A DNA stretch of 64,000 bases from Alphaproteobacteria bacterium (lineage in GTDB: Bacteria > Pseudomonadota > Alphaproteobacteria > UBA828): positions 336,152-400,151 of the forward strand of contig CBDBLP010000002.1 of NCBI GenBank assembly GCA_965207055.1, given 5' to 3'. The translations under genes were made by a program, and so were the position numbers. A model generated the notes under the pieces. That model was not told the DNA's origin. It ran no database searches and saw nothing but the letters and a program-made list of their open reading frames with translations. Below are positions 1-21,609 of the stretch, piece by piece. Numbering within the stretch: position 1 is the first letter of the stretch; each line of letters starts with the position of its first letter.

Positions 1-366
1 ACGCGGCGCTTTCCCCGCCGGGAGATCGAGGCGGCGCTCGACGCCGTCGGCCTGGAGCGGCTCGGCGATCCGCCCATCTCGACGCTCTCCGGCGGCGAGT
101 TCCAGCGGCTGTTGCTGGCGCGGGCGCTGATCGAGAGGCCCGACCTGCTGGTTCTCGACGAGCCGGCCCAGGGCGTCGATGTGAGCGGGGCGGACGTCTT
201 CCACGAGTTGATCGGGGAGATCCGCCGCACCCTTGGCTGCGGCATCCTGATCATCTCCCACGACATCGAGCTCGCGGCGCGAAGCGGCGACGATGTCGTC
301 GTCCTTGTGCCCCACGAGCATGACGCGGAGCCGGCCGGCGACGCCGCCGGTGCGCCGGGGACCTGA
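1..366 (+). CDS. znuC: Zinc-type ABC transporter ATP-binding protein (5' end outside window)
   Basis: Frame 1 is open from base 1. The translation has the ABC signature LSGGEFQR and Walker B LLVLDEP, and a ZnuB-like permease follows 3 nt downstream. Confidence 0.75.
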   Translation, partial: TRRFPRREIEAALDAVGLERLGDPPISTLSGGEFQRLLLARALIERPDLLVLDEPAQGVDVSGADVFHELIGEIRRTLGCGILIISHDIELAARSGDDVVVLVPHEHDAEPAGDAAGAPGT

Positions 367-369
367 GCG

Positions 370-1188
370 ATGCTCGACGACTTCTTCATGCGCGCTCTCA
401 TCGCCGGCATCGGGCTCGCGCTCGTCACCGGGCCGGCGGGGTGCTTCGTGGTCTGGCGCAGACTGGCCTACTTCGGCGAGACCATCGCGCACTCCTCGCT
501 GCTCGGCGTCGCGCTCGCCATCGTGCTGCAGTTCAACCTGGTCATCGGCATCCTGATCAGCGCCGCGCTGGTGGCCGTCATCATGTTCTATCTCGACCGG
601 CGCGGCACGCTGCCGACCGACACCCTGCTGGGCCTGCTCGCCCACGGCGGGCTCGCCCTCGGCCTGGTGATCCTCTCGTTCTTCCCGTCCATGCGGATCG
701 ACCTGCACGGGCTGCTCTTCGGCGACATCCTGGCCGTCCAGCGGATCGACCTGGCGGTGATCTGGGGTGGCGGCGCGGTCGTGTTGGGCGTGCTCGCGTG
801 GCTCTGGCGTCCGTTGCTGGCGGCGACCGTCAACCCGGACCTCGCCGCGGTGGCGGGCCTCAAGCCAGAGCGGGCGCGGCTGATCTTCGGACTGCTGGTG
901 GCGGCGATCATCGCCGTCGCCATCAAGATCGTCGGCATCCTGTTAATCGTGGCGCTCCTGATCATTCCCGCGGCCACCGCCCGGCGCTTCGCACCGAGTC
1001 CCGAATGGATGGCCGTGGGCGCCGCGGCGGTGGGCGCCTCCGCGACCGTGGGCGGGCTCTACGCGTCCGCGACCTGGGACACGCCCTCCGGCCCCTCCAT
1101 CGTCGTCACGGCGCTGGCGCTCTTCATCGTGACCCGCGCCGACGCCCTTCGGAAGGTGGGGCAATTGGTGGTCAGCCGGAGACGGTAA
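370..1188 (+). CDS. znuB: Zinc ABC transporter permease
   Basis: 272-aa polytopic membrane protein (MLDDFFMRALIAGIGLALVTGPAGCFVVWRRLAYFGETIAHSSLLGVALA...), typical of the ZnuB/ABC-3 family. It is tightly linked to the znuC-like gene. Confidence 0.85.
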   Translation: MLDDFFMRALIAGIGLALVTGPAGCFVVWRRLAYFGETIAHSSLLGVALAIVLQFNLVIGILISAALVAVIMFYLDRRGTLPTDTLLGLLAHGGLALGLVILSFFPSMRIDLHGLLFGDILAVQRIDLAVIWGGGAVVLGVLAWLWRPLLAATVNPDLAAVAGLKPERARLIFGLLVAAIIAVAIKIVGILLIVALLIIPAATARRFAPSPEWMAVGAAAVGASATVGGLYASATWDTPSGPSIVVTALALFIVTRADALRKVGQLVVSRRR

Positions 1189-1971
1189 CGGCCTCGTCGG
1201 CGCAGCCCTCCAGCTCGATCTGCACGGTGACGTGGCGGATGTCGAAGCGGTCCGCGAGGCGCTCCTGAATGGCGGCGACAGCCGAATCGGGATTGGTGCC
1301 CTCGGTGACACGGGCGTGGAGCGTGAGCAGCGAGTGCTCCTGCGAGAGCGACCAGGCGTGGACGTGATGCACGTCCTCGACGACGGGAACGTGCGAGACC
1401 AGATCGCGGCCGATGTCGCGAACGTCCAGCGCGGCGGGCACGCCTTCGAGCAGGACGTGCGCCGCGTCCTTCACCAGGAACCAGGCGCTGCGCAGCACCA
1501 AGAGCCCGACCACGATTGAGAGAATCGGGTCGATCGGCATCCAGCCGGTGGTCATGATGACCAGCGCCGCGCCGATCGCCGCCACCGAGCCCAGCATGTC
1601 GCCCCACACGTGGAGGAGCGCGCCCCGCACGTTGAGGTTGGTGCGGTCGGCACCATGGAGCACGGCGAACGCCGCAATGTTGACGGCCAGGCCAAGCCCC
1701 GCCACCGCCAGCATGGGGCCGGCCAGCACCTCCGTCGGGTTCAGCAGCCGCTCGGCGGCCTCGCTGAAGATCCAGATGCAGATGAAGACGAGGCTGATGC
1801 CGTTGGTGAAGGCGGCGAGGACGGGGAAGCGGTGATAGCCGTAGGTGCGTGCCGTATCGGCAGGGCGCCGGCTCAGCCTGAAGGCGAGCCAGGCGAAGAG
1901 CAGGGAGACCGAGTCGATGAGCATGTGCGCGGCATCGGCCAGCAGCGCGAGCGAGCCCGAGAGCACGCCGC
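1172..1971 (-). pseudogene. czcD: Cation diffusion facilitator (CzcD-like) gene, C-terminal 264-codon fragment cut off by transposon insertion
   Basis: CDF motifs run from VLSGSLALLADAAHMLIDSVSL onward (TM2-TM6 plus the cytoplasmic domain). The N-terminal 94 aa of the track ORF (1172..2248) are read-through into the transposon end and have no CDF character. Confidence 0.85.
1967..1971. repeat. 5-bp target-site duplication GCCGC (left copy)
   Basis: GCCGC lies directly before the TGAGCG terminus, and an identical pentamer is at 6397-6401. Confidence 0.8.
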
Positions 1972-2116
1972 TGAGCGGGCGCACGCTTTCAGCGGCGATC
2001 TGGGGCTGATCGGCTCGGATTAATCGAGGTTTTGGGATGGGTGCCCCCCGGCGATCTTGCAAGAAGGCCGCCGGAGGGCTTGTCTCGGTGACGGTGAAAT
2101 CATCTGAGACGCCCCA

Positions 2117-2731
2117 ATGTCGCACAAGCTGTTCCGCCACTCCATGCTTTCCGATGCCCGGGTGTGGGCTTTCCTGAAGCGGGTCGACGCGGCGGAGACG
2201 GAGACCTGCCGTGCGGCGGGCTGTCCGCGCTGCGGCGGGGCGCTTCACAGCGCGACCTACCCGCGCAAGCCGTACGGCCTGTCGGCCGATCTTCGGGACG
2301 ATGCCCGACGCTTCAGCCTGTGCTGTTCGGTGTGCCGGCGCCGCGTGAATCCTCCGTCGGTGCGTTTCTTCGGGCGCCGGTTCTATGTCGGGGCTGTGTT
2401 CCTCCTGGTGAGCGCTCTGGCTCTGGCCGGCGGCGTGCGGCTGCAGACGATCGCGCGGCGGTGCGGGGTTCCGGCGTCGACGCTGAGGCGCTGGCGGCGC
2501 TGGTGGCAGGAGATCTTCCCGCTCACCCGGGAATGGCGGGCCAAGCGGGGCGCGCTTGCAGCGCCGCCCGGCGAGGCGCCGCTGCGCTGGCTGCTGGGTT
2601 CGGTGCGGGGCGCCAGCTTCCGCTCGCGGCTGTTGCGCAGCCTGGTCTGGCTGATGCCGTGGACCGGCTTTTGCACGCTCGGCGCCGGGCCGGGATCTCC
2701 CGCAGAAAGCGTTTCTTTTATGAACGGATAG
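2117..2731 (+). CDS. Zn-ribbon plus HTH-like protein of the transposon, function unknown
   Basis: 204 aa with CPRCGG...CCSVCRRR cysteine pairs (putative zinc ribbon), followed by a hydrophobic segment and the HTH-like stretch IARRCGVPASTLRRWRRWW. It is the first gene inside the left end. Confidence 0.55.
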   Translation: MSHKLFRHSMLSDARVWAFLKRVDAAETETCRAAGCPRCGGALHSATYPRKPYGLSADLRDDARRFSLCCSVCRRRVNPPSVRFFGRRFYVGAVFLLVSALALAGGVRLQTIARRCGVPASTLRRWRRWWQEIFPLTREWRAKRGALAAPPGEAPLRWLLGSVRGASFRSRLLRSLVWLMPWTGFCTLGAGPGSPAESVSFMNG

Positions 2732-2780
2732 GCCGCTCTACACCGGCAACTCCCCAGGACGGCGAGGGAGGGATGCCGGG

Positions 2781-4262
2781 ATGGACAGCAACGACGGGAA
2801 CGGCCGCCGCGACCGGTGGGCGCGGCTGCGGTTCGCGGTGGTCGGGCCGCTGCTGGCCTCGCCGCCGCCGGCAGGGCGGCTGCGGGCGGAGCTTGAGCGG
2901 CTGTCGCGGCGCGACTGGGAGCACCCGTCGGGCAGGGGTCCGGTGCGCTTCGCGGCCTCCACGATCGAACGCTGGTACTACCAGGCGCGGGCGGCCGAGC
3001 ACGATCCGGTCAAGGCGCTGCGGCGGCGGCCGCGCGCCGATGCCGGGCGCGAGCGGGCGATGTCGCCGGCGCTGCTCGCGGCGCTGCGCGAGCAGTACCG
3101 GGCGCATCCGTCGTGGTCGGCGCAGCTGCACTACGAGAATCTCGGCGCGCTGGTCGAGGCCGACCCCGCGCTCGGCCCGATGCCGTCCTACGCGACGCTG
3201 ACCCGGGCGATGCGCAGCCGTGGCCTGGTCCGCAAGCGCCGGCGCCGGCGCTTCGAGCGCGAGCCCGAGCCGGTCGCGCAGACGCGCGAGGTGCTGAGCT
3301 ACGAGGTCGAGCGCAGCCACGGCCTCTGGCACTGCGACTTCCACCATGCGAAGCGCCGCGTGCTGACGCCGTCCGGCGAATGGAAGACGCCGATCCTGCT
3401 CGGGTTCCTGGACGATCGTTCGCGGCTCGGCTGCCACCTGCAGTGGTATCTGGCGGAGACCGCCGAGGTCTTCGTCCACGGGCTCTGCCAGGCCTTCATG
3501 AAGCGCGGCCTGCCGCGCGCCCTGATGAGCGACAACGGCTCGCCGATGATCGCCGGCGAGGTCGAGGAGGGGCTGCACCGGCTTGGCATCGTCCACTCCA
3601 CGACCCTCGCGGGAGCCCCTTATCAGAACGGCAAGATGGAGGTCCTGTGGGCCTCGGTCGAGGGCCGCCTGATGGCCATGCTCGAAGGGGTCGAGGCGCT
3701 CACCCTGAAGACGCTCAACGATGCCACCGTCGCCTGGGTCGAGCAGGACTACCACCGCCGCGTTCACCGCGAGCTCGGCACGACGCCGATGAAGCGACTG
3801 CTCGACAGCGTCGATGCGTCGAGGCCCTGTCCCGGCGTCGACACGCTCAGGGCTGCGTTCCGGATCACCCGGAAGCGCACGCTGAGGCGCTCGGACGGAA
3901 CCGTCTCGGTCGAGGGCGTGCGCTTCCAGATGCCGGCGCCATGGCGCCACCTGAACATGCTCTGGATCCGCTACGCGCGCTGGGACCTGTCCAGCGTCGA
4001 TCTGGTCGACGCCCCTGACGGCGAGCGGCTGTGCACCCTCTATCCGCTGGACAAGCGCGGCAATGCCGGCGGCATGCGCCGCCCCACCGCCCCTGGCGAT
4101 GACGATGGCGGCGGCAGCCCCGGCGCCGCCGGGGGCGAAGCCGCGCCGCTGCTCAGGCGCATCCTCGACAACCAGGCCGCCACGGGCCTGCCGCCGGCCT
4201 GGCTGCCCCATGCCGCAAGCCCCCGTCCCGACAAGGACGACCAACAGGGAGACCCCTCATGA
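2781..4262 (+). CDS. DDE (retroviral-integrase fold) transposase, TniA/TnsB/MuA-like
   Basis: 493 aa with an rve-type core: HGLWHCDFHH..., LMSDNGSPM..., YQNGKMEVLWASVEG (D, D, E context). The N-terminal region is HTH-like. Confidence 0.8.
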   Translation: MDSNDGNGRRDRWARLRFAVVGPLLASPPPAGRLRAELERLSRRDWEHPSGRGPVRFAASTIERWYYQARAAEHDPVKALRRRPRADAGRERAMSPALLAALREQYRAHPSWSAQLHYENLGALVEADPALGPMPSYATLTRAMRSRGLVRKRRRRRFEREPEPVAQTREVLSYEVERSHGLWHCDFHHAKRRVLTPSGEWKTPILLGFLDDRSRLGCHLQWYLAETAEVFVHGLCQAFMKRGLPRALMSDNGSPMIAGEVEEGLHRLGIVHSTTLAGAPYQNGKMEVLWASVEGRLMAMLEGVEALTLKTLNDATVAWVEQDYHRRVHRELGTTPMKRLLDSVDASRPCPGVDTLRAAFRITRKRTLRRSDGTVSVEGVRFQMPAPWRHLNMLWIRYARWDLSSVDLVDAPDGERLCTLYPLDKRGNAGGMRRPTAPGDDDGGGSPGAAGGEAAPLLRRILDNQAATGLPPAWLPHAASPRPDKDDQQGDPS

Positions 4263-5092
4263 ACCGCGAACTGCTCACCTTCTTCGGCCTCAAGTGGAAC
4301 CCCTTCTCAAGCGAGCTGCCGTTCGACGGCCTCATGGCGACCCCCGCCGTCGACAGCTTCTGCCACCGGGTGGAGCACCACCTGGTGCGCCAGGGTGGCT
4401 TCGCCCTGATCACCGGCGAGCCCGGCACCGGAAAGAGCGTCGCGCTTCGCCTGCTCGCCGACCGGCTCGCCCGCACCGACGGATTGCGCGTCGCCGCGCT
4501 CTCCCACCCGTCCTCGCGTCTCGGCGACTTCTACCGCGAGATGGGCGAGCTGTTCGGCATCACCCTGGTCACCGGCAGCCGATGGACCAGCTTCAAGGGG
4601 CTGCGCGAGCGCTGGCTCGCCCATCTCGACGACACCCGCATGCGGCCCCTGCTGCTGATCGACGAAGCCCAGGAGCTGCACGTCACGGTGCTGTCCGAGA
4701 TCCGCCTGCTCGGCTCCATCGACTTCGACTCGCGCGCCATCCTCTCGGTCGTCCTGGCCGGCGACAACCGCCTGCTCGACAGGCTCGGCCAACCCGACCT
4801 GCGGCCGCTCGCCTCGCGCATCCGACAGCGCCTCGTCATGGCGCCCGCCGAACACGAAGAACTCGCCCGGTTGCTCGACCACCTGCTGCAGGAGGCCGGC
4901 AACCCGGCGCTGATGACCGCCGACCTCAAGGACGCGCTCTGCGCCCATGCCTCGGGCAACCCCAGGACGCTCACCGTCATGGCCGATACCCTGCTCGCCA
5001 TCGCCGCCGAACAGGATCGCGAGGTGCTCGACGAGAAGCTCTTCCTGGAGACCTGGGGCGAGGCCCCGCCGCGCAGGGCAAATCGGCGATGA
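4259..5092 (+). CDS. AAA+ ATPase partner of the transposase (TniB/ExeA/AAA_22-like)
   Basis: 277 aa with Walker A GEPGTGKSV and Walker B LLLIDEAQEL. Its start overlaps the transposase stop. Confidence 0.75.
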   Translation: MNRELLTFFGLKWNPFSSELPFDGLMATPAVDSFCHRVEHHLVRQGGFALITGEPGTGKSVALRLLADRLARTDGLRVAALSHPSSRLGDFYREMGELFGITLVTGSRWTSFKGLRERWLAHLDDTRMRPLLLIDEAQELHVTVLSEIRLLGSIDFDSRAILSVVLAGDNRLLDRLGQPDLRPLASRIRQRLVMAPAEHEELARLLDHLLQEAGNPALMTADLKDALCAHASGNPRTLTVMADTLLAIAAEQDREVLDEKLFLETWGEAPPRRANRR

Positions 5093-6114
5093 AGGGCTTC
5101 CCGACCCGAACCCCGGCCGACCTCGAGAACCGGCCGCGCCGGCAGCAGTGGCTGGTCGACGGGCTCTGGGCGCGCCAGGCGGTCGGCATCGTCGGCGGCG
5201 AACCCAAGTGCGGCAAGTCCTTCCTCGCGCTCGACCTCGCCGTCGCCGTGGCCGCCGGCGTGCCCTGCCTGCGCCGCTTCGCCGCCGAACAGCCCGGACC
5301 GGTCCTGCTGTTCGCCGCCGAGGATGCCGGCCACATCGTGCGAGCCCGCCTCGAGGGCATCGCCCGCGCCGCCGGCGCCCGGTTCGAGACCCTCGACATC
5401 GCCGTCATCGACGTCCCGATCCTCCGCCTCGACCACCGCAACGACCGCCAGCGCCTGATGGAGACCGTGGAGCGCGTCGGGCCACGCCTCGTGGTCCTCG
5501 ACCCCCTGGTCCGCCTCCACGGCGTCGACGAGAACGCCGTCGCCGAGGTCGCCCCCATCCTCGGCTTCCTGCGCGACATACAGCGACGCTTCGAGACCGC
5601 AATCCTGCTCGTCCACCATGCCCGCAAGAGCGGCGCCGCCCGGCCGGGCCAGGCGCTCAGGGGATCGTCCGAGCTGCACGCATGGGGGGACAGCAATCTG
5701 TACCTGCGCCGGCGGGACAAGCAGATCGTCATGACCGTCGAGCATCGCGCCGCCCCGGGCCTCAACGATGTCGAAATCGAACTCGCCGATGACGGCGAGG
5801 GACCCGCCTTGCGCCTCCGGCGCCCGGCGCCGGCCGAAGCCGCGCCGGAGCCGGAAACCCCCGAACGGCGTATCCTCCAGGCACTCGCCGACGCCGACGC
5901 GCCGCTCTCCCAGCGCCAGATCCGCGAGCGCGCCGCGACCCGGCCGGCAACCGTCGCCGAGGCGCTGCACAAGCTCGTCCGCGAAGGACGCGTCGAGCGC
6001 GCTGCCGAAGGCGGATACCGCCTCACCGCCGACAACGCCACGCCCCCAGCCGCTGTCAATGGTCGGGGCCGCAACGACGTGTTACCGAAAACCGTTACCG
6101 CCTCGAACCCCTAG
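5089..6114 (+). CDS. RecA-fold AAA_25-type ATPase with C-terminal winged-helix domain
   Basis: The internal ATG at 5089 overlaps the preceding stop (ATGA). Walker A is GGEPKCGKSF, Walker B is LVVLDPLVRL, and LLVHHARK follows. The C-terminus ILQALADADAPLSQRQIRERAATRPATVAEALHKLVREGRVER looks like a MarR-type wHTH. Confidence 0.7.
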   Translation: MKGFPTRTPADLENRPRRQQWLVDGLWARQAVGIVGGEPKCGKSFLALDLAVAVAAGVPCLRRFAAEQPGPVLLFAAEDAGHIVRARLEGIARAAGARFETLDIAVIDVPILRLDHRNDRQRLMETVERVGPRLVVLDPLVRLHGVDENAVAEVAPILGFLRDIQRRFETAILLVHHARKSGAARPGQALRGSSELHAWGDSNLYLRRRDKQIVMTVEHRAAPGLNDVEIELADDGEGPALRLRRPAPAEAAPEPETPERRILQALADADAPLSQRQIRERAATRPATVAEALHKLVREGRVERAAEGGYRLTADNATPPAAVNGRGRNDVLPKTVTASNP

Positions 6115-6143
6115 GGAGGCAGGGTAACGGTAACGGGTAACAC
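6079..6143. repeat. GTTACC/GGTAAC inverted-repeat cluster spanning the stop codon of the AAA_25 gene
   Basis: GTGTTACCGAAAACCGTTACC (6079-6099) pairs with GGTAACGGTAACGGGTAACAC (6123-6143). As an inverted repeat 17 of 21 positions match, including two perfect 8-bp blocks. Confidence 0.7.
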
Positions 6144-6396
6144 CCCCCGCCAGCTTCCATCGCCGTACCGCGTCGAGCGATCGGCTCATGGCCGAAAGCT
6201 CTGCTTACGGCCATGGATGCACTCCGTCGGATGGACGGCGGCGGGTCACCCGAAGGGCCGGAGCGAAGCGAAGGAGCCGCGCAGCGGCTTGACGCGTCGA
6301 CGGCCGTCCGACACCCCGACAGCGTTCCTCCGAACCTGACCCGGCAACCATCGAATAACCCGATCACCGCACCATCAGATACCGGAAGCGCGCTCA

Positions 6397-6401
6397 GCCG
6401 C
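6397..6401. repeat. 5-bp target-site duplication GCCGC (right copy)
   Basis: It lies directly after the CGCTCA terminus of the transposon. Confidence 0.8.
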
Positions 6402-6525
6402 CGATCACCTCGGCGATCGTGAAGCCCGCGGTCAGCAGCAGCGCCCAGAAGATGCGGGTGGCGTTGTCGCCGTGCGCATGGTGGACGTGCGCGTGGCCAG
6501 CATGACCGTGGTGGTGGGCGGCCAT
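6397..6525 (-). pseudogene. czcD: CzcD-like CDF gene, N-terminal 43-codon fragment
   Basis: Translates to MAAHHHGHAGHAHVHHAHGDNATRIFWALLLTAGFTIAEVIGG and then runs into a TGA supplied by the transposon end (6394-6396). The His-rich N-terminus plus TM1 is typical of CzcD. Confidence 0.8.
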
Positions 6526-6657
6526 CACCGTGTAACCAGCGAATGGTCTGCCGAAGGCACCTGACGATCTCCTTCCGTCAGAACTGGGACAGTCTATTGC
6601 AAAGGGGACATGACGGGCCGCGCTTTCCCGCGATCTGCCGCTGCCCTTGCGGGCAAC

Positions 6658-7704
6658 TCAGCCGAGCGGCGTGTTGAGAAAGGCGATGAACGACACCAGG
6701 CCGACGAGGGTGACCAGTGCGGCGCCGGCGTAGTTCATGCCGTGGCGCAGCACGTTCGCCCCGCCGCCGCCCGAGCGCTCCATGACCCGCATCGCGGCTT
6801 GCCTGGCGAGGATCGCGCCGACCCCCAGCACGCAGATGCTCGAGCCGATACCGAGCGACATCGCCGCGACCAGCAGGGAGCCGGGAACGATCATGTCGTT
6901 GGCCACGGCGTAAAGCATGATCAGCACGGCGCCGGGGCAGGGGACCATGCCGGCCGCGAGCGCCAGAATGCCGCCTTCCGCCTTGCCGCCGTGACTGTGG
7001 CCATGGTGATGGCCGTGGTCGTGATGGTGGGGGTGGTCGTGATGATGAGGCGGGCTGTGCCCGTGGCTGTGATCATGGCTGTGCCCGTGTCCGTGCCCGT
7101 GTGCGCCGCCTGAGCGCGCCCTCAGCGAGGCACGCACGGCCTGGTAGAGCATGTAGAGCCCGATGCCGACGATGATGAGGAAGCTCGCGGCGCGCACGCC
7201 CGGCACGTCCGATAGCCCGAGGCCGAAGCCGCCGCGCAGCACGAGGTCGGCCAGCCAGACGATGACGACGGCGGCGATGACGTGGACGATGGCGATCTGC
7301 ACGGCCATGACAACGCCGCGCATCACCCGTGCCTCGCGCCCGAGGAAATAGGAGACGACCACGAACTTCCCGTGCCCCGGCCCGAGCGCATGGACGGCGC
7401 CGTAGGCGAACGCGACCGCAAGGGCCAGGAGGAAGGCGCCGAGGTTCTCGCCCCGCTCGATGGCGTTCATGTGGAGGGCGACCTCGGCGTTGGCGCGGCG
7501 CTGGAAGTCCATCAGGAAGTCGGTGAAACCCTCGAACAGGCCGCCGTCTTCCTCGACGATCTCGACCTCGACCGGGGCGGGCGCTGCGCCGTCGGTCTGC
7601 GAGAGCGCGAGCGGTGCCGTGAACAGGCTGGTCAGAAGCAGCACGCACACCAGGCCCAGCAGCGCGGCCGGCCTGCGGCGGCGTCTATGGGGCCGATTGC
7701 TCAT
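6658..7704 (-). CDS. RcnA/NicO-like nickel-cobalt (metal) transporter with a His-rich loop
   Basis: 348 aa with the HALGPGHGK motif, the loop HGHGHGHSHDHSHGHSPPHHHDHPHHHDHGHHHGHSHGG, and a VPCPGA motif. Confidence 0.75.
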   Translation of the reverse strand: MSNRPHRRRRRPAALLGLVCVLLLTSLFTAPLALSQTDGAAPAPVEVEIVEEDGGLFEGFTDFLMDFQRRANAEVALHMNAIERGENLGAFLLALAVAFAYGAVHALGPGHGKFVVVSYFLGREARVMRGVVMAVQIAIVHVIAAVVIVWLADLVLRGGFGLGLSDVPGVRAASFLIIVGIGLYMLYQAVRASLRARSGGAHGHGHGHSHDHSHGHSPPHHHDHPHHHDHGHHHGHSHGGKAEGGILALAAGMVPCPGAVLIMLYAVANDMIVPGSLLVAAMSLGIGSSICVLGVGAILARQAAMRVMERSGGGGANVLRHGMNYAGAALVTLVGLVSFIAFLNTPLG

Positions 7705-10484: not shown

Positions 10485-13400
10485 TCAATACTCCACTTCG
10501 GACGAAGGGCTGGCGATCACGTTATCGCGGAGTTGGTTGTACCGGTCCCGCATCCTGCGCTCGATCTCGTCGGCAACCTCTTCGGCGACCTCGCGCGGAT
10601 CGGCGGCGTTTGAATGGACCGTGAGAGAACCGATGACCGACTGGATATTTACCGTGCCCGCCCGCTCGGCCCTGCGCTGACGGCGCCCCCTCGGCCCGGA
10701 CGCGGCCGCCTCCGCCTCGGGCTCCGGCGGTGTCCACACCTGATCGCCGTGGCGCTCGGCCATATCTGCGGCCCGCCGCCGCCGCCGGCGCTGAACGTGC
10801 GGAACCTGTCTGAGCCCGACGCCGCGCCAGTTTCCGATCTCCGGTGGCGCGTTCGGGTCGCGCTTGGGAATCAGGTCGAGGATCCACTGCGCCGCGTTCT
10901 CGCTCTCCTTCGAGGTCCAGCCTGGATCGAATGCCGCCTTGGTGGCGGCGCGGCCCGCGCTCTCGCCGCCCATAAAGCCACCCAGGCCGGCCAGGAGCGA
11001 CCCGCCGAATCGGATCGGTCCCGGCAGGGATCGCATGAGGCTGCCCGCGACACGCCCGGCTGCTGAAGATCCAGCCAAGCCGCCGGCGAGGCCGCCCACC
11101 TCGGGTGCGACCTGGTCGTCCGGTATCGCGCCTGTAGCGATGTCGTGTGCCGTGAGGCCCATGAGCGCACCGGCGCTGGCCGGGCCGAGGCCGCGGGTAA
11201 GGAGCCGCCACAGGCCGCCAGCCCTCGGCCGCGAGCCCGGACCAGTGCCGCTGAGGCGGCCTTCGCCGACCCTTGGTCGGGTGCCGGGGCCTGTGCCGCT
11301 GAGACGACCTTCGCCGAGACGTGGCCTGGTACCGGGTCCTGTGCCGCTGAGGCCGCCGCCCCTGGGTCCCGCCCGCGAGCCGGGGCCTGTGCCGCTGAGA
11401 CGCCCGCCGCCTGACCTGGGCCGCGTCGTTGGACCTGTGCCGCCCAGGTGCGCCGGTGTGAGCCGAGGCCGCGAGCCGGGGCCTGTGCCGCTGAGACGGC
11501 CTTCGCCTGCTCTCGGCCGCGAGCCAGGGCCGCTGCCGCTGAGACGACCTTCGCCGACCCTTGGTCGGGTGCCGGGGCCTGTACCGCTGAGACGACCTTC
11601 GCCGAGACGTGGCCTGGTACCGGGTCCTGTGCCGCTGAGGCCGCCGCCCCTGGGTCCCGCCCGCGAGCCGGGGCCTGTGCCGCTGAGACGACCTTCGCCG
11701 AGACGTGGCCTGGTACCGGGTCCTGTGCCGCTGAGGCCGCCGCCCCTGGGTCCCGCCCGCGAGCCCGGACCAGTGCCGCTGAGGCGGCCTTCGCCGACCC
11801 TTGGTCGGGTGCCGGGGCCTGTGCCGCTGAGACGACCTTCGCCGAGACGTGGCCTGGTACCGGGTCCTGTGCCGCTGAGGCCGCCGCCCCTGGGTCCCGC
11901 CCGCGAGCCGGGGCCTGTGCCGCTGAGACGCCCGCCGCCTGACCTGGGCCGCGTCGTTGGACCTGTGCCGCCCAGGTGCGCCGGTGTGAGCCGAGGCCGC
12001 GAGCCGGGGCCTGTGCCGCTGAGACGGCCTTCGCCTGCTCTCGGCCGCGAGCCAGGGCCGCTGCCGCTGAGACGACCTTCGCCGACCCTTGGTCGGGTGC
12101 CGGGGCCTGTACCGCTGAGACGACCTTCGCCGAGACGTGGCCTGGTACCGGGTCCTGTGCCGCTGAGGCCGCCGCCCCTGGGTCCCGCCCGCGAGCCGGG
12201 GCCTGTGCCGCTGAGACGACCTTCGCCGAGACGTGGCCTGGTACCGGGTCCTGTGCCGCTGAGGCCGCCGCCCCTGGGTCCCGCCCGCGAGCCGGGGCCT
12301 GTGCCGCTGAGACGCCCGCCGCCTGACCTGGGCCGCGTCGTTGGACCTGTGCCGCCCAGGTGCGCCGGTGTGAGCCGAGGCCGCGAGCCGGGGCCTGTGC
12401 CGCTGAGACGGCCTTCGCCTGCTCTCGGCCGCGAGCCAGGGCCGCTGCCGCTGAGACGACCTTCGCCGACCCTTGGTCGGGTGCCGGGGCCTGTACCGCT
12501 GAGACGACCTTCGCCGAGACGTGGCCTGGTACCGGGGCCTGTGCCGCTGAGGCCGCCGCCCCTGGGTCCCGCCCGCGAGCCGGGGCCTGTGCCGCTGAGA
12601 CGCCCGCCGCCTGACCTGGGCCGCGTTGTTGGACCGCCGCCCAGCCCGGCGAGCCGCGTGAACAGGCGGCCAGCCCCGCGAAGAGCCTTGAACGCGTACC
12701 AGCTGCCGGCGAGCAGGCCCACCCCGACCAGCAGCTCATCCTTGAACGAGGTGAGCGCGGTCACAACCTCGCCGACCGGACCGGTGAGCTTGTCCTGCAT
12801 CCAGGCATCGACGTCGGTCTTGGTCTCCTGGACCTTCGCGGCGGACGTTTCGGCCATCCTCGCGGCATCGCGCGACAGCATGTCCGGCGGCGCCTCGATC
12901 GTGAGAAAGCGTTCGTAGTCGGCCCGCCCCTGCGCCGTGAAAAGGCCGGAAATCGCGCGTACCCCTTCGGCGTCGATAATCCCCGACAGGCGAGTGATGT
13001 CGCCGTCTACTGCGTCGACGACCTCCTTGACGATGCGGTCCAGCGGGCGGAAAGCGCCCGTGGCGTCGCGAACGTTGACGCCGAGCTGCTCCCAGATCAG
13101 GTCGATCTTCTGAGCATCGGAGAGCGTGCGCAGGAACGCTTCCACGGCGGTCGTCGCCTGTTCGCTCGATCCGGTGGACTGGCGGGCCATCTGGGCGAAC
13201 GCGCCGAGCTGGCGAGCGGCGGCGGGGCCCTGGTAGCCGAGGCGGGCAAAGGCCGAGGTCAGACGCTCGCCCTGGGCGGCCATGTTGCCGACCGTAAACG
13301 CGCCGGACTTCCCCTGCGCCGTCCACAGGTTGAAGGCCCGCGCGACGCCGGCCGGATCGGTGATGCCGAGTTTGCGCATCTCGGCGGCAAGGCGGCCGAT

Positions 13401-14174
13401 GGCGTCGCCAGTGCCGCCCGATCCCTGAATTGCCTGGGCGACCAGCACCAGATTGTCGCGCACAAAGTCCAGGTCTCCCGTCTTCTCGATGACTGCCTCG
13501 GCGGCGGCGAGAAGCTGCGACGGATCGAGGCGTATTTCCTTCAGGTTGGCAGTCGCGTTCACTTCCTGCTGAAACCGTTTGATCTCTTCCCTGGACCGCC
13601 CGGTCTGTATTTCGAGCCGCGCGTAGCGCTGCTCCAGGGTGAGCATGCGCTTGAGGCCACTGGCGATGGCAAAGCCGCCGCCTGCAATTCCGAGGACGCC
13701 TGCGCCCAGGCCGATTCCGCCGCGCAGCCTGCCTGCGGTACGGGCCGCGAGGCCGGCTTCCGTGCGGAATCCCTTCAGGCGCCGGGTGAGGCGGCCAAGG
13801 GACCGCTCGCCGTCCCGGCCGGCCCGGCGGAGCCCGTGGCCGAGGCGGTTTGCTTCCTGGGTGGTCCGCTGGATCTCGCGCCGCGCGCCGCGCGCGCCCT
13901 CACGGACGCCGCGGCCCATGAGCGAGCCGCTGCGGCTTGCCTTCATCAATCCGCCGCTGAGGCGGCTCGCTTCCTTGGTGGTCCGCTGGACTTCGCGCCG
14001 TGCGCCGCGCGTGCCCTTGGCGACGTTGCGGCCCATGAGCGAGCCGCTGCCTGCGGCCTTGCGGAGGCTGCCGCCGAGGCGCTCGGTGTCCTGCGCCGCC
14101 CCCTTCGCGCCGCGGCGGAAGCGCCCCGCCGCGAGGTCGAGGAGGACGCCTACGCGATAGGTGGAATCGGCCAT
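10485..14174 (-). CDS. Phage tail tape-measure-like protein with a large internal G/P/R-rich repeat array
   Basis: 1,229 aa. Residues about 180-420 resemble the TP901-type tape-measure N-terminal domain (LEIQTGRSREEIKRFQQEV..., LGITDPAGVARAFNLW..., AFLRTLSDAQ...). Gly-rich hydrophobic segments follow. Confidence 0.7.
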   Translation of the reverse strand: MADSTYRVGVLLDLAAGRFRRGAKGAAQDTERLGGSLRKAAGSGSLMGRNVAKGTRGARREVQRTTKEASRLSGGLMKASRSGSLMGRGVREGARGARREIQRTTQEANRLGHGLRRAGRDGERSLGRLTRRLKGFRTEAGLAARTAGRLRGGIGLGAGVLGIAGGGFAIASGLKRMLTLEQRYARLEIQTGRSREEIKRFQQEVNATANLKEIRLDPSQLLAAAEAVIEKTGDLDFVRDNLVLVAQAIQGSGGTGDAIGRLAAEMRKLGITDPAGVARAFNLWTAQGKSGAFTVGNMAAQGERLTSAFARLGYQGPAAARQLGAFAQMARQSTGSSEQATTAVEAFLRTLSDAQKIDLIWEQLGVNVRDATGAFRPLDRIVKEVVDAVDGDITRLSGIIDAEGVRAISGLFTAQGRADYERFLTIEAPPDMLSRDAARMAETSAAKVQETKTDVDAWMQDKLTGPVGEVVTALTSFKDELLVGVGLLAGSWYAFKALRGAGRLFTRLAGLGGGPTTRPRSGGGRLSGTGPGSRAGPRGGGLSGTGPGTRPRLGEGRLSGTGPGTRPRVGEGRLSGSGPGSRPRAGEGRLSGTGPGSRPRLTPAHLGGTGPTTRPRSGGGRLSGTGPGSRAGPRGGGLSGTGPGTRPRLGEGRLSGTGPGSRAGPRGGGLSGTGPGTRPRLGEGRLSGTGPGTRPRVGEGRLSGSGPGSRPRAGEGRLSGTGPGSRPRLTPAHLGGTGPTTRPRSGGGRLSGTGPGSRAGPRGGGLSGTGPGTRPRLGEGRLSGTGPGTRPRVGEGRLSGTGPGSRAGPRGGGLSGTGPGTRPRLGEGRLSGTGPGSRAGPRGGGLSGTGPGTRPRLGEGRLSGTGPGTRPRVGEGRLSGSGPGSRPRAGEGRLSGTGPGSRPRLTPAHLGGTGPTTRPRSGGGRLSGTGPGSRAGPRGGGLSGTGPGTRPRLGEGRLSGTGPGTRPRVGEGRLSGTGPGSRPRAGGLWRLLTRGLGPASAGALMGLTAHDIATGAIPDDQVAPEVGGLAGGLAGSSAAGRVAGSLMRSLPGPIRFGGSLLAGLGGFMGGESAGRAATKAAFDPGWTSKESENAAQWILDLIPKRDPNAPPEIGNWRGVGLRQVPHVQRRRRRRAADMAERHGDQVWTPPEPEAEAAASGPRGRRQRRAERAGTVNIQSVIGSLTVHSNAADPREVAEEVADEIERRMRDRYNQLRDNVIASPSSEVEY
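11215..12645. repeat. About 30 tandem in-frame copies of a 48-bp (16-aa) unit organised in higher-order repeats
   Basis: The unit is GEGRLSGTGPGSRPRx. The TPAHLGGTGPTTRPRS variant recurs at 528-bp and 384-bp spacing (11 and 8 units). Long stretches are nearly identical at the DNA level. Confidence 0.85.
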
Positions 14175-14177
14175 CGG

Positions 14178-14666
14178 CTAATTCGGCGGCCCGGCACCGG
14201 CGAAGCGCCATTGCGTGCCTGGAGAGGTATGCACGGCCGCGCGGTTCTTGGTCGGGGTGGCAACCCCGGACAGGTCCGCGTCGCCGACCCAGGTGCCGCC
14301 CATGTCCGCATCCGTGAGCACGGCGCCCGCCAGGTCGACGGCGCTCATATAGGCGTGGCGCAGGTCGGCACGCTCGAGGTTCGCGCCAGCCATATAGGCA
14401 TTGGTCAGGATCGCATGGCGCAGGTCAGCGGCGCCCAGGTACGCGCCGGCAAAGCAGGCTCCGATGAGATTCGCCCCCCGAAGATCCGCGCCGCCGAGAA
14501 AGGCGCCAGCGAAGCGCGATCCCTCCAAATCGGCAGCTTGGAGACAGCACCCGGTGAGGTCCGCCCCCGCAAAATCGGCGAAGGGCAGACGCGCCGCCCA
14601 GAAGTCAGCATGCGACAGGTCGAAGCCGGCAAAATCACGGCCGGCTACGAGCAGTGCGGCCGCCAT
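14178..14666 (-). CDS. Pentapeptide-repeat protein
   Basis: 162 aa with continuous pentapeptide periodicity (ADFAGADLTGCCLQAADLEGSRFAGAFLGGADLRGANLIGACFAGAYLGAADLRHAIL...). Its stop is 4 nt upstream of the tape-measure start. Confidence 0.85.
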   Translation of the reverse strand: MAAALLVAGRDFAGFDLSHADFWAARLPFADFAGADLTGCCLQAADLEGSRFAGAFLGGADLRGANLIGACFAGAYLGAADLRHAILTNAYMAGANLERADLRHAYMSAVDLAGAVLTDADMGGTWVGDADLSGVATPTKNRAAVHTSPGTQWRFAGAGPPN

Positions 14667-14667
14667 G

Positions 14668-15666
14668 TCAGGCGGCCCGCGCGACCAAGTCGAAATTCGG
14701 ATCGTTCACGAGCGCGACGGATGACAGGCCGGTTACCTCGCCCGCGCTGTCGTGCGTGAGGGCCGGCGACAGGTGCCGGTACTCCCCGTTTGCGATCGCC
14801 GCAGCGGCCGCGTCGCCGAGCTGCATGTCCGCGTCGAGTCCGCCGTTCCCGTTGACGCGGAAATTCGAGAGCCAGCCCTCGGCCCGCGTGCTGCCGGCGA
14901 AGGTCGGCGAAACGCGCTCCGACCTATGGTCGAAGTCGATGCGGGGCGCCACGGCCTGCGCGTTGATGCGCGCCGCGAGCGCGGCCATGCTCTTGACCCG
15001 AAAGCGGCGGCCGTCGCGGCCTGTCAGGTAGCCGCCGCGCGGGGGAGGAATCACCTCCATCGTGAGCGAAGCGCCGCGCAGGTTCAGGGAAACCACCCAA
15101 GGATTGAGTGCAGAATCCGACGCCGCCATCATCGCCCGCTGGCGCGGCGGTGCGCTGCCCGGCGTTTTGCTGGTCAGCGCCCTATAGAATACCGCTCGCG
15201 CGTCGCGGTGCTCCATGGCGACCTCGCCGAGCCGATAGAACACGCGGGCGGTGCCCGCTTCGTCCGGATCGCCGCTACCGAGATCAATGTCCATGACCTC
15301 GGCCACCGCGCGCTTCTCCGCAGGCAAGGCGGCCACCCATGCCTGGACTACCAACTTGATGCTCTTGTCGCCGCCCTCCGCCATGAGGCCGATGGCGAAG
15401 GCGTCCCGCGAGGCGAAGTCAACCCCGCCCATCGCCTCGGCCACCACGTCGTGGGGCGTAGGTATGAGCGCCTGGCGAATCTGTTCCTGGTCGACATGCA
15501 TGCCCATGGCGCCCACGCCGTACCAAAAGCACGCCGTGGCCTTTTCGCCCTTCTCGCCGGCCGCGTAGAGCGGCCCGAGGCCTACCGATTCGGCGGCGCG
15601 CTTGCGCCGAGCCTCGGCGGCCCCGCACCATGCAGCGATTATGCTGTCCGGACCGCCCAACATCAC
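14668..15666 (-). CDS. Protein with a C-terminal Mu gpI-like (Mu-like_Pro) prohead protease domain and an unknown N-terminal half
   Basis: The C-terminal half (IPPPRGGYLTGRDGRRF...RIDFDHRSE...AEGWLSNFRVNGNGGLDADMQL...ANGEYRHLSPAL...GLSSVALVNDPNF) parallels Mu gpI landmarks recalled from memory: RARDGRP, IDYEHQ, AGWF, EYRYISPVF, ALTNxPAL. Confidence 0.6.
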   Translation of the reverse strand: MMLGGPDSIIAAWCGAAEARRKRAAESVGLGPLYAAGEKGEKATACFWYGVGAMGMHVDQEQIRQALIPTPHDVVAEAMGGVDFASRDAFAIGLMAEGGDKSIKLVVQAWVAALPAEKRAVAEVMDIDLGSGDPDEAGTARVFYRLGEVAMEHRDARAVFYRALTSKTPGSAPPRQRAMMAASDSALNPWVVSLNLRGASLTMEVIPPPRGGYLTGRDGRRFRVKSMAALAARINAQAVAPRIDFDHRSERVSPTFAGSTRAEGWLSNFRVNGNGGLDADMQLGDAAAAAIANGEYRHLSPALTHDSAGEVTGLSSVALVNDPNFDLVARAA

Positions 15667-16175
15667 GCCGCCCTCTGGCCGCGCAGCTGCGCCAGGCGGT
15701 CTTCGGCTGCCCGCTCGGCCGGAGTGAGTGCCGCCCGGCGGGCCTTCTCGGCCTCGGCCGCTTCGCGCTCGGCCGCCTTGCGCTCGCCTCTCTCTTTCGC
15801 CAGGCGCTCGCGCTCGGCTTTCTCGGCCGCCTTGCGCTCGGCCTTCTCGGCGGCCTCGTCCAGCGCGCGCTGCTGGGCCTCCGCCTCCCGCATTTCGGCG
15901 GCGAACTGGCGCGCCTCGATCATCCGCGCCTGGATGCGCTCAATGATTGTGACGGCATTCTGGTGCGCGGCAGCCACCTTTCTCCAGTCGTCAACGGCGG
16001 CTTCGCAGTAGTTCTCATCGCCGCTGTACCGGCGGCCGCATATCGACCCCTGAAACTCGGCGTCGTGCGAAACTCGCGCCAGCTCTCGCCGGTCCTTGGT
16101 ATCAGCCTCGCCGAGAGCGGCCAGCGCCTCCGCCAGGGTGGCCGCGTGGCGGCCGGGATCACTCCATTTGCTCAT
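15663..16175 (-). CDS. Coiled-coil, charge-repeat protein (scaffold-like), function unknown
   Basis: 170 aa from the ATG at 16175, which forms an ATGA overlap with the upstream gene. The C-terminal half is AEKAERKAAEKAERERLAKERGERKAAEREAAEAEKARR. Confidence 0.5.
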   Translation of the reverse strand: MSKWSDPGRHAATLAEALAALGEADTKDRRELARVSHDAEFQGSICGRRYSGDENYCEAAVDDWRKVAAAHQNAVTIIERIQARMIEARQFAAEMREAEAQQRALDEAAEKAERKAAEKAERERLAKERGERKAAEREAAEAEKARRAALTPAERAAEDRLAQLRGQRAA

Positions 16176-16549
16176 GTTTCCTCGCTTCGTTGCGGCCCGT
16201 CCGGGCCGGCCAGTATCGACGTTGCGTCCGCCGCGAGTCTGTGTGTCGCCCGCGCCAGCGCATACGCTCTCAGTTGCTCGCGCGTCCAGCCGCTGCGACC
16301 GGTTCCGGCGACATTGCGGGCGGCCGGCGCCAGGTGGCGCGCCTCCGCCGAATCGGGGTGGTCGCGCCTGTAAAACGGTTTGCTGTAGATCTCGAAGGTC
16401 CCAGGGGCGGGCGCAAACGGTCCCATGAGCTCGCTGAGATATCGGGCGGCTTCCTTCGTTGTCAGGAGGCCTTCGTATGCAGCGAGGCGGGCCATGGTCG
16501 GCTGGCTGTCGTTTCCGGGTTGCGGCAGGTCCACCATGCGATACCACAC
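16172..16549 (-). CDS. Small putative DNA-binding protein (HTH-like LLTTKEAARYL)
   Basis: The ORF is coupled to the downstream gene. The motif GLLTTKEAARYLSEL resembles MerR/excisionase-type HTH proteins. The real start may be the internal ATG at 16495. Confidence 0.4.
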   Translation of the reverse strand: MWYRMVDLPQPGNDSQPTMARLAAYEGLLTTKEAARYLSELMGPFAPAPGTFEIYSKPFYRRDHPDSAEARHLAPAARNVAGTGRSGWTREQLRAYALARATHRLAADATSILAGPDGPQRSEET

Positions 16550-16640
16550 TTCACCGGGGGTTTTTGGAACAAAACGGAGAAAATTGCAGAGGGCCCTGGG
16601 GGCGGCTCACCACGGGACACGACCGGACAATGTGTGCGCG

Positions 16641-17780
16641 TCAGACCACCCGATCGGCGGCGCGTGCGGCACCTTCCTCGGGCTCTTCGTCGTCCATCTG
16701 AAGGAAAAGCGCACGGATATCGGCTTGGAGGCGCTCGGACTCCTCGTCGCTCAGATTCCTTCCTAGGGGACCAATCGTGGTGATAACCAAATCAATGATT
16801 TGGTCGAAGAGGTCATTGTGGTCGCCAACACTGGGCGCCTCAGCCCGATCGCGATTCGCCAAGGCCTTGACGCGTGGCGGCAGGGGCTGTCCCGGTTCAA
16901 GCCTGCCGTCTCCGTGCTCATCTTGCCAGCGATTGAGCCAGCGGCGAATTGTCGAGACATTGGGTGCCTCGCCATGGTGTTCGATCAGCGCCTGTCGCGC
17001 ATCCTTGGCCGTGAGATGGCGACCGCGAAGCGTGGCGAGGCCCTCGAGCGTCTTCTGCATCGACGCGTCCAGCGACGTCGGTCTTCCCGTTCGGGGCCTG
17101 TCGAGTAGCGCCTCCTGTCGCGCTATTGGGTTGGCGATCCCCTTGACCTTGCCGCGCCAAGCCCCTACCGCAGATGCTGACACGCCTGCCTCTTTCCCAG
17201 CTATGGCATCAGCCTCGGCGCGCGACTTGCCCTCGCTCTTGAGGGCGTCGGAGCGCTCGATCACTGCAAGCCGTTGCGTGGCCTGTTCGCGTTGGGCTTC
17301 TGTGGCGGGTTCCGAGGCGCCGGCACCCAACACCGCTTTCGTTCCGGCGTCCTGCAGCGGCTGGTGCGGAATGGCTGCAACGGTCAGTGCCGCCACCTCC
17401 CGGCGTAAGGTGGCAATCTCGTTGAGAAATTCTCCAAGGCGGTTGCTGAGAGCGGCTTGACTGCGCTCTACGCGCTGCCGGTCTGGCGCCTCATCGATGT
17501 CGCCCGCGCCGCCCGCGAGACCCCACTCTCGAGGCGGGCCGATATAGAACTCAAGGCCCAGAGCGTCACATACGTCGGCGACGCGCGAAAGCTTTGGCTC
17601 GTGCCCGTCGAGGATGCTGCGTATAGCATCACGCGGCAGTCCGGCTGCCGTTGCGACGCCGGCCCTGGAACGACGGCCAAGCGCCGCCTCGACCGCCTTC
17701 CGAAAATCATCGAGAACTGGCGGCATAGGGTACTTGTGCCACGTTTGCCGTGCGAACACAACGGGGCGCGTGGAATACAC
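16641..17780 (-). CDS. Repressor-like protein: N-terminal XRE-type HTH plus a domain shared with the MuA-like transposase N-terminus
   Basis: The XRE-like stretch is GVATAAGLPRDAIRSILDGHEPKLSRVADVCDALGLEFYIG. Residues about 160-237 align with the transposase N-terminus. The gene is divergent from the early operon, as for Mu c. The start is uncertain (GTG 17780 or ATG 17729). Confidence 0.6.
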   Translation of the reverse strand: MYSTRPVVFARQTWHKYPMPPVLDDFRKAVEAALGRRSRAGVATAAGLPRDAIRSILDGHEPKLSRVADVCDALGLEFYIGPPREWGLAGGAGDIDEAPDRQRVERSQAALSNRLGEFLNEIATLRREVAALTVAAIPHQPLQDAGTKAVLGAGASEPATEAQREQATQRLAVIERSDALKSEGKSRAEADAIAGKEAGVSASAVGAWRGKVKGIANPIARQEALLDRPRTGRPTSLDASMQKTLEGLATLRGRHLTAKDARQALIEHHGEAPNVSTIRRWLNRWQDEHGDGRLEPGQPLPPRVKALANRDRAEAPSVGDHNDLFDQIIDLVITTIGPLGRNLSDEESERLQADIRALFLQMDDEEPEEGAARAADRVV

Positions 17781-17827
17781 TCGACGAATCTTTTGACTCT
17801 TCGTGTAATTCGTGCCACGATCGACGT

Positions 17828-18142
17828 ATGGATTCGACGCTGAGGTTGATGGAGCTCTATTCGGAGCACCGCGGCATTGCCCCGACGACGTTGGGCAGGC
17901 TCACGGTCAGCTCCTCTACTGTGGCAAAGCGCATCGGCCGAGGAGCGGTCACGATCCGCACCACCCGGAAGATTGAACGTTGGCTTTCCGACCATTGGCC
18001 AGCGGGCCTTGAGTGGCCATCCGATATCCCTCGACCGACGCCCAACCAATCACAACCTGCGGCCCGGCCAGAGGGGGGGGCGATGACTGACCCCTCGCCC
18101 GGCACCGGCGCGCGCGCCATCCGAAACCAACTTCACACCTGA
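17828..18142 (+). CDS. Small protein in the Ner position (first gene of the early operon)
   Basis: The internal ATG at 17828 gives MDSTLRLMELYSEHRGIAPTTLGRLTVSSSTVAKRIGRGAVTIRTTRKIERWL. The call rests on position and size only. Confidence 0.4.
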   Translation: MDSTLRLMELYSEHRGIAPTTLGRLTVSSSTVAKRIGRGAVTIRTTRKIERWLSDHWPAGLEWPSDIPRPTPNQSQPAARPEGGAMTDPSPGTGARAIRNQLHT

Positions 18143-18156
18143 CAGGGAGGATCACA

Positions 18157-21578: not shown

Positions 21579-21609
21579 GTTTTCTCAGCGAACACCGGGG
21601 CGCGTAGCG

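Follow-up and report, generated by a model that had tools for sequence, protein, structure and literature searches.

A Tn6049-related transposon with a fourth gene for a RecA-fold ATPase interrupts a cation diffusion facilitator gene in an uncultured alphaproteobacterium

A contig of an uncultured alphaproteobacterium (Alphaproteobacteria bacterium, GTDB lineage UBA828; GenBank assembly GCA_965207055.1, contig CBDBLP010000002.1) carries a metal-exporter gene of the cation diffusion facilitator (CDF) family in two pieces lying 4.4 kb apart. The stretch analysed here, called the window below, comprises 64,000 nucleotides (64 kb; positions 336,152 to 400,151 of the contig). The locus raises two questions: what parted the gene, and by what kind of machinery would the intervening DNA have come there? 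The answer proposed here, with high confidence, is that a transposon of the Tn6049 family has inserted into the CDF gene and inactivated it, and that its mobility would rely on a Mu-type machine of two proteins. The insertion itself is ordinary biology.

The interrupted gene and its empty site

The pentanucleotide GCCGC stands at 1967-1971 and again at 6397-6401, and the 4425 bp between the two copies (1972-6396) begin with TGAGCG and end with CGCTCA. An earlier reading of the bare sequence (hereafter, the original prediction) had placed these boundaries exactly, to the base. The intervening element carries four genes on the plus strand, and the CDF gene lies on the minus strand on either side of it. 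The 3' part of this gene (1172-1971) runs from the second base of codon 42 to codon 307 and the stop codon, with the left copy of the target-site duplication at 1967-1971. The 5' part (6397-6525, 43 codons) holds the start codon, the histidine-rich N-terminus and the first transmembrane segment (TM1), with the right copy of the duplication at 6397-6401. A mechanically called open reading frame (ORF) at 1172-2248 on the minus strand starts inside the element, reads out into the CDF remnant (264 codons), and lacks the His-rich N-terminus and TM1.

Deletion of the element in silico had been predicted to restore a CDF protein of about 307 residues. On the minus strand, the join of 1172-1971 and 6402-6525 gives 924 nucleotides that are in frame and encode 307 amino acids (MAAHHHGH...VTVSG*); shifting the join by one base breaks the frame. 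The restored protein matches the NCBIfam ZitB model NF002923 (1.8e-96, residues 10-302 against model positions 6-298 of 313), with a score under the equivalog cut-off, and the CDF superfamily model TIGR01297 (2.6e-81, residues 23-296), above its cut-off; both matches cross the junction at residue 43/44. A database search returned intact orthologues of exactly 307 amino acids (96-97% identity, 100% coverage), which carry PF01545 and PF16916, the latter being the C-terminal dimerisation domain looked for in a full-length CDF protein. With one of them, P0003, the restored protein aligns end to end, with 296 of 307 residues identical, zero gaps, and the junction (AEVIGG/VLSGS) unchanged. By homology, the interrupted gene is a CDF gene of the ZitB/CzcD type; as the ZitB match stays below the equivalog cut-off, the type is assigned without a metal specificity.

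A Tn6049-family transposon of 4425 bp has, thus, entered codons 42-43 of this gene, duplicating the 5-bp GCCGC and parting the His-rich N-terminus and TM1 from the remainder of the protein. Because these parts are cut off from the rest, the exporter is predicted to be inactivated.

Relatives of the host show the locus before insertion. The DNA around two intact 307-aa orthologues was collected as three loci (L082/L083 and L084), all of which hold an uninterrupted CDF gene in the gene order of the window: GntR, DUF1007, NicO, CDF, ZnuB, ZnuC, and ZnuA. The empty sites read ...GTGATCGGCGGCGTGCT... with one GCGGC (the reverse complement of GCCGC), that is, a single copy of the 5-bp target, whereas the window has two copies parted by the element. 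The window flanks are 92-96% identical to these loci, up to 6397 on one side and from 1974 onward on the other, the latter stretch consisting of the flank to 1971 plus three element bases that match by chance. Taken together, the restored frame, the family matches, the empty sites and the termini agree far too closely for a coincidence.

A rival explanation would be that the split is no insertion, and reflects either an ancestral gene layout or an assembly artefact in which unrelated contigs were joined through a repeat. The window perhaps comes from a metagenome assembly, and related genomes hold the element as a repeat of many copies, the kind of sequence at which assemblers err. Nevertheless, both flanks are syntenic with the relatives on each side, the gene halves join in frame to the base, and the 5-bp target, single in the relatives and doubled here, is what transposition leaves behind and misassembly does not. 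Because the relatives have one GCGGC and the window two around the element, the comparison of filled and empty sites rules out an ancestral arrangement and makes an artefact very unlikely; taken as a whole, this rival is exceedingly improbable.

The interrupted gene sits where the original prediction had located it, between zinc-uptake genes and an RcnA-like system. On one side are ZnuB (an ABC-3 family gene, 370-1188), ZnuC and ZnuA, and on the other a NicO/RcnA-type gene with a His-rich loop (6658-7704), a DUF1007 gene and a GntR/FCD gene. The prediction had also called the insertion recent. This is plausible in view of the perfect duplication, the otherwise intact gene halves and the identical sister copies in related genomes, while the window alone gives no date.

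Two further observations concern the same locus in relatives. The ZnuC ATPase gene beside the intact CDF gene is split in one of L082/L083 (9730-10401), giving 95 + 109 aa instead of 223 aa; the two contigs are otherwise near-identical and come from the same sample, and the split is a frameshift or an assembly error. In L084, the region upstream of GntR-DUF1007-NicO-CDF (1-4751) carries transposase genes of the IS21, IS110 and DDE_Tnp_1 types. Mobile elements frequently land in the surroundings of this metal locus.

Ends, copies and target duplications

Comparison with other copies allows the termini to be defined independently of the window. A search with the 493-aa transposase of the element against one genome per species yielded 80 loci out of 200 relatives. 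Sixty-four loci other than that of the window align with the element over its whole length, bases 1 to 4425, with 76-96% identity, and every one of them starts with TGAG[A/C]... and ends with ...CTCA, so that the copies and the element stop at the same bases. The full-length copies analysed sit at different places in several metagenome-assembled genomes (MAGs), with 10, 33, 18 and 2 per genome in four genomes; the window holds only one.

The flanks of the 64 copies carry duplications of 5 bp (n = 33), 4 bp (n = 23), 6 bp (n = 1) or 3 bp (n = 1), or none (n = 6), and duplications of 4, 5 or 6 bp, at differing sites, are found in 57/64. The original prediction took a 5-bp duplication as a hallmark; this holds for the window and for 33 of the 64 copies, but not as a strict rule, since 23 of them have 4 bp. 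The possibility that all duplications are 4 bp long and are extended by chance is rejected (P = 7e-7), and the stagger is, therefore, truly variable, at 4 or 5 bp. Among the six copies with no duplication, L049 and L060 have swapped flanks and three others are one base off a match; two pairs of duplication-less copies have exchanged flanks, as recombination between copies would give. The 5-bp targets prefer N-C-S-G-N, with C at position 2 in 23/34 and G at position 4 in 23/34, and the GCCGC of the window agrees with this pattern. The target preference of phage Mu, NYSRN, resembles it.

Both ends of the element carry a terminal motif, TGAG[C/A]G[G/C]GC, and a subterminal one, TGATCGG..TTAWTCGAKG, placed 30-55 bp inward. 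At the left end (1972-2029, plus strand), these are TGAGCGGGCGC and CTGATCGGCTCGGATTAATCGAGG (2006-2029); at the right end (6348-6396, minus strand), they are TGAGCGCGC, read inward, and GGTGATCGGGTTATTCGATGG (6348-6368). Common to the two ends and conserved across lineages, the motifs are probably the binding sites of the transposase. A promoter and terminator scan gave nothing over the shuffled expectation, and megablast of the element against the PLSDB plasmids gave no match.

Some copies depart from the full-length form. A 99%-identical copy on a metagenome contig (L001, 3620-3660) has lost its left tip, as its first 5-6 bases (TGAGAG) are replaced by CACCCG next to an IS21 element (IstA/IstB). 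In one MAG, fragments of an 81%-identical relative, extending from the fourth gene to the structured block described below, lie 1-3 kb from full copies (L025 10165-11415, L030 12101-13351, L040 2248-3498, and L043 10374-10515), and the elements of that MAG appear to insert close to one another.

Transposition genes and relationship to known elements

The four ORFs of the element are co-oriented, and the stop and start codons of ORF2/ORF3 and of ORF3/ORF4 overlap as ATGA. ORF1 (2117-2731, plus strand, 204 aa) combines a zinc ribbon (CxxC...CCxxC) with a helix-turn-helix (HTH) domain (Pfam HTH_23, 6e-7), and is homologous to the gene that comes first in Tn6049. Its invariant residues are Cys31, 36, 39, 69, 70, 73 and 186, together with His44. 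Profile comparison by hhalign relates it, at a probability of 92.6%, to a DUF6431 protein of an Acidithiobacillus plasmid, where its gene lies upstream of that of a distantly related transposase, which suggests that ORF1 is a distant relative of the DUF6431 proteins. A fold search with its AlphaFold model (predicted local distance difference test, pLDDT, 62) returned no match. ORF1 is probably a DNA-binding accessory protein or regulator, conserved family-wide.

ORF2, named tnpA (2781-4262, plus strand, 493 aa), encodes a predicted DDE transposase of the rve type, whose residues D186, D251 and E287, in a DD(35)E arrangement, are invariant among 33 homologues. It matches PHROG 310, annotated 'transposase' (1e-34), and its sequence and profile searches against the PDB returned retroviral integrase cores only. 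ORF3 (4259-5092, plus strand, 277 aa) encodes an AAA+ ATPase (Pfam AAA_22, 1e-21), with a Walker A motif at residue 53 and a Walker B motif at residue 132; it is the counterpart of 'GspA' of Tn6049. It matches PHROG 296, 'DNA transposition protein' (4e-23), and the best match of its profile in the PDB is MuB of phage Mu (8xvb, 'ATP-dependent target DNA activator B', 3.5e-7), with TnsC at 0.15. PADLOC assigned no ORF of the element to a defence system, save for a weak mads_8 match of this ATPase.

The closest named relative is Tn6049. In tblastn searches against plasmids, the transposase found homologues of 50% identity in pMOL28 and pMOL30 of Cupriavidus metallidurans and in a Pseudomonas aeruginosa plasmid; for the Tn6049 TnpA copies of pMOL28 and pMOL30, this identity extends over residues 10-469 (E = 7e-121). 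ORF1 is 40% identical (E = 5e-33) to a 181-aa ORF located upstream in the same orientation, and the ATPase is 50% identical to 'GspA' over all 277 aa, the two proteins being of equal length. The Tn6049 locus of pMOL28, thus, reads small ORF, transposase, 277-aa ATPase, and 71-aa ORF. Tn6049 has been described as a 3.5-kb transposon with 12 copies in strain CH34, all with the 'gspA' ATPase gene and one inside pbrU (PMC2864759, PMC3384475). Its ends are TG..CA, with imperfect inverted repeats 12 bp long (TGTGCATAAGCA and TGCTCACGCACA), and its direct repeat has 4 bp (PMC4739549). As this published repeat has 4 bp and a 5-bp duplication, TATGG, was read in pMOL28, Tn6049 shares the 4/5-bp variability of the window element.

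The two elements, therefore, resemble each other in three homologous genes in the same order, in TG...CA ends with short imperfect inverted repeats, and in duplications of 4 or 5 bp. Tn6049 is likewise multi-copy in its host, also interrupts a metal-resistance gene (pbrU), and is present on the P. aeruginosa plasmid pHS87a. They differ in size (3.5 kb against 4.4 kb), in their last gene (a 71-aa ORF against a 341-aa RepA-like gene combining an ATPase with a winged helix), in a conserved structured non-coding block found only in the window element, in termini unrelated beyond TG/CA, and in their hosts, which are Burkholderiales for Tn6049 and uncultured Alphaproteobacteria MAGs for the window element. 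With 4425 bp and a 341-aa AAA_25-winged-helix gene instead of 3.5 kb and a 71-aa ORF, the element is, as judged from these homologies, a relative of Tn6049 and a distinct four-gene sub-type, rather than a copy of Tn6049 itself, within a poorly characterised family. A literature search found no description of a four-gene version of a Tn6049-type element.

At the protein level, the Tn6049-type module resolves by homology as a DDE transposase, a MuB-like AAA+ ATPase, and a small zinc-ribbon/HTH protein. From this, it can be inferred that a Mu-type two-protein machine moves the element. Assembled on the terminal and subterminal repeats, the DDE transposase would cut at the conserved CA-3' ends and link these to the target, the stagger being 4 or 5 bp. 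The MuB-like ATPase, whose translation is coupled to that of the transposase, would bind and present, select or activate the target DNA. Phage Mu has the same order of a transposase gene followed by a homologous AAA+ ATPase gene (MuA/MuB), TG..CA ends and a 5-bp duplication; in contrast, the element has no phage genes and also makes 4-bp duplications. As its transposase does not show the MuA domain set (DDE_2, HTH_Tnp_Mu, Mu-transpos_C), the element is suggested to work like Mu, without being called a member of the Mu-type module.

Several points weigh against this interpretation. The Pfam matches of the transposase are limited to rve, HTH_32 and rva_4, all below the Pfam cut-offs, with neither DDE_2 nor Mu-transpos_C among them, and its nearest curated family is IS481, under the model cut-off. 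Its AlphaFold model is good only in the N-terminal helical domains and the C-terminal beta-barrel, and the catalytic core is poorly modelled (pLDDT ~30-40; predicted template modelling score, pTM, 0.31). The top Foldseek matches are all TnsB, MuA or IstA, but at template modelling (TM) scores of ~0.2; they are only suggestive, being consistent with Mu-type machinery and no proof of it. In print, Tn6049's transposition module "could not be categorized" (PMC6210171). Finally, few or no bases separate the copies of any one genome (none differ in a set of 10, and in a set of 33 the median number of differences is 0), which indicates recent bursts, but assembly polishing in long-read MAGs could homogenise repeats and inflate this identity. 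So many identical copies are compatible with replicative transposition, without proving it.

The IS481 resemblance is confined to the catalytic region, for which NF033577 is the nearest model (E = 2.8e-30, residues 57-340). The Tn6049 transposase is labelled 'IS481 family transposase' by PGAP; the window transposase, at 105.8 bits, falls short of the NCBI IS481 cut-off of 224. IS481 elements are of ~1 kb, with a single gene and no ATPase, whereas the window element has four genes, and its transposase has an extra C-terminal ~150 aa, including the beta-barrel. A member of IS481 duplicates a 6-bp NCTAGN target (PMC6794481). On the score and the four genes, a canonical IS481 element is rejected.

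Other families also use DDE transposases that depend on an AAA+ protein: IS21, Tn7 (TnsABCDE) and Tn5053 (TniABQR) have this in common, along with TG..CA ends and short duplications of fixed stagger. An enlarged member of the IS21 family, with an IstA-like transposase, an IstB-like AAA+ helper and passenger genes, is one such rival. IS21 elements typically end in TG..CA, carry subterminal repeats and make duplications that vary between 4 and 5 bp, all of which fits the element. Also in favour are the operon of the element, in which the ATPase gene follows the transposase gene and the stop and start codons overlap, and the presence of IstA among the fold matches. However, searches of NCBIfam and Pfam gave no IstB_IS21 match (PF01695) for the ATPase and no IS21 match for the transposase, while the genuine IS21 beside the L001 copy is recognised as IstB_IS21. 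The best sequence links lead to MuB and to PHROG 310/296 instead, and the upstream ORF1, conserved in Tn6049, is not an IS21 feature. With no IstB or IstA signature, the IS21 assignment is rejected as improbable.

The original prediction had named Mu, Tn7 and Tn5053-type transposition together. The Mu part fits the MuB-homologous ATPase and the Tn6049 relationship, whereas the other two do not fit, no TnsA, TniQ or TniR being present. A Tn7-like or Tn5053/Tn402-like transposon, in which TnsB/TniA and TnsC/TniB would act with a TniQ-type target selector, would account for the 5-bp duplication at this site, the TniB-like AAA_22 ATPase and the TnsB among the top Foldseek matches, and the zinc ribbon and HTH of ORF1 loosely resemble the N-terminus of TniQ. 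Nevertheless, Pfam and NCBIfam searches of the four ORFs found no TnsA, TniQ (PF06527) or TniR resolvase, the ATPase is matched far better by MuB (3.5e-7) than by TnsC (E = 0.15), and 23/64 copies have 4-bp duplications. The insertions are dispersed, with no targeting of an attachment site or res site, and the sequence relatives are Tn6049, not Tn7 or Tn402. Both the Tn7 and the Tn5053 assignments are, thus, rejected, this rival being very improbable. The preferred reading remains a Tn6049-family transposon that would move by a Mu-type transposase and ATPase.

The fourth gene, the right arm and the rest of the window

What sets the sub-type apart is its last gene. ORF4 (5089-6114, plus strand, 341 aa) is predicted to encode a RecA-fold ATPase of the RepA/DnaB class (Pfam AAA_25, 1.9e-38) with a C-terminal winged helix of the IclR/MarR type. 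Walker A and B motifs are present; residues 32-196 match RepA of RSF1010 (1g8y, E = 4e-11), and the protein also matches the helicase domains of phage primase-helicases. The AAA_25 RecA-fold ATPase is common to RepA and ORF4; unlike RepA, ORF4 is fused to a winged helix and belongs to a transposon, where neither a primase gene nor an initiator gene adjoins it. This two-domain layout belongs to a large family (516 cluster representatives at E <= 1e-30), and tblastn against the PLSDB plasmids returned no homologue of ORF4 at E <= 1e-8.

All relatives whose transposase is at least 67% identical keep ORF4, at an amino-acid identity of 70-80%. Among its bearers are contigs assigned to several phyla; bins of short contigs are unreliable. 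Some copies carry insertions of 2.7-3.7 kb within it (L028, 8772-11449; L077 and L078, 8787-12500) or a truncation after about 160 codons (L079-L081). ORF4 can, therefore, be lost in single copies, though it is conserved across lineages. As a best guess, it would aid the replication or repair of the transposition intermediate.

Two structured features follow in the right arm. The first is a hairpin of GTTACC/GGTAAC repeats across the ORF4 stop codon (6079-6143, plus strand; -46.2 kcal/mol, z = -3.3), conserved in 4/5 aligned lineages; Tn6049 has a different, GTAAC-containing hairpin past its last ORF (L085, 6524-6554). The second is a covarying non-coding block (6170-6320, plus strand), composed of a hairpin (6184-6220) and a long bipartite stem (6226-6312), the conservation of which across lineages exceeds that of the coding genes. 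Its predicted structure, derived from and scored on just nine distinct sequences, has 47 pairs, with 96.5% of cells paired and compensatory changes in six pairs; its covariation score was reached by 0/500 shuffles, and slid controls were 29-44% paired. The G-U pairs of the block form on the plus (sense) strand only. It could be an RNA (a 3' untranslated region or a small RNA) or a single-stranded DNA structure. Rfam gave no family match at E <= 1 across 1900-6600, and a covariance model of the block found no instance outside the source lineages, nor in Tn6049 or the four-gene lineages L045-L047 and L064, the contigs of which run well past ORF4. The block is, therefore, as judged by this search, specific to certain lineages and not essential to the family.

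Beyond the element, the window contains a Mu-like prophage remnant (10485-22653), unrelated to the Tn6049-like element. It comprises, on the minus strand, an ORF resembling a tail tape-measure gene (PhageMin_Tail, 10485-14174) and a Mu-like prophage I protein gene (14668-15666). On the plus strand, it comprises genes for a true MuA-type transposase (DDE_2, HTH_Tnp_Mu_2 and Mu-transpos_C, 18796-20622) and a MuB-like AAA_22 ATPase (20619-21578), as well as an ORF (21520-22653) that a 'Recombinase' domain matches weakly. The window, thus, contains two A/B-type transposition modules of different kinds, ~12 kb apart. Directly past the Mu-like region, a 2052-aa ORF (23075-29233, plus strand) carries at least 12 Calx-beta repeats (Pfam, 2e-205), and is probably a giant surface or adhesion protein.

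For the host, the predicted consequence of the insertion is the removal of the sole CDF exporter of a compact zinc/nickel homeostasis locus. Since close relatives hold intact and interrupted alleles, the locus provides, in these uncultured bacteria, a naturally occurring comparison for the loss of genes through mobile elements. For the Tn6049 family, the many copies supply exact ends, dozens of independent target sites and a target preference, and a protein-level placement (DDE transposase, MuB homologue, and DUF6431-like zinc-ribbon protein) can now be given.

A bolder proposal, doubtful at present, is that the sub-family is a Mu-type transposon with its own replicative-helicase-class ATPase, perhaps together with a dedicated structured site (the GTTACC hairpin, 6170-6320, or both) close to its right end. 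If this were true, the element would load a helicase that it encodes itself, either at the strand-transfer intermediate or at an excised circular form, independently of the replication-restart factors of the host, and this could account for bursts that leave 10-33 or more identical copies in a genome and for its presence in contigs assigned to several phyla. ORF4 and the structured block constitute testable leads on how AAA+-assisted transposons handle the replication of their intermediates.

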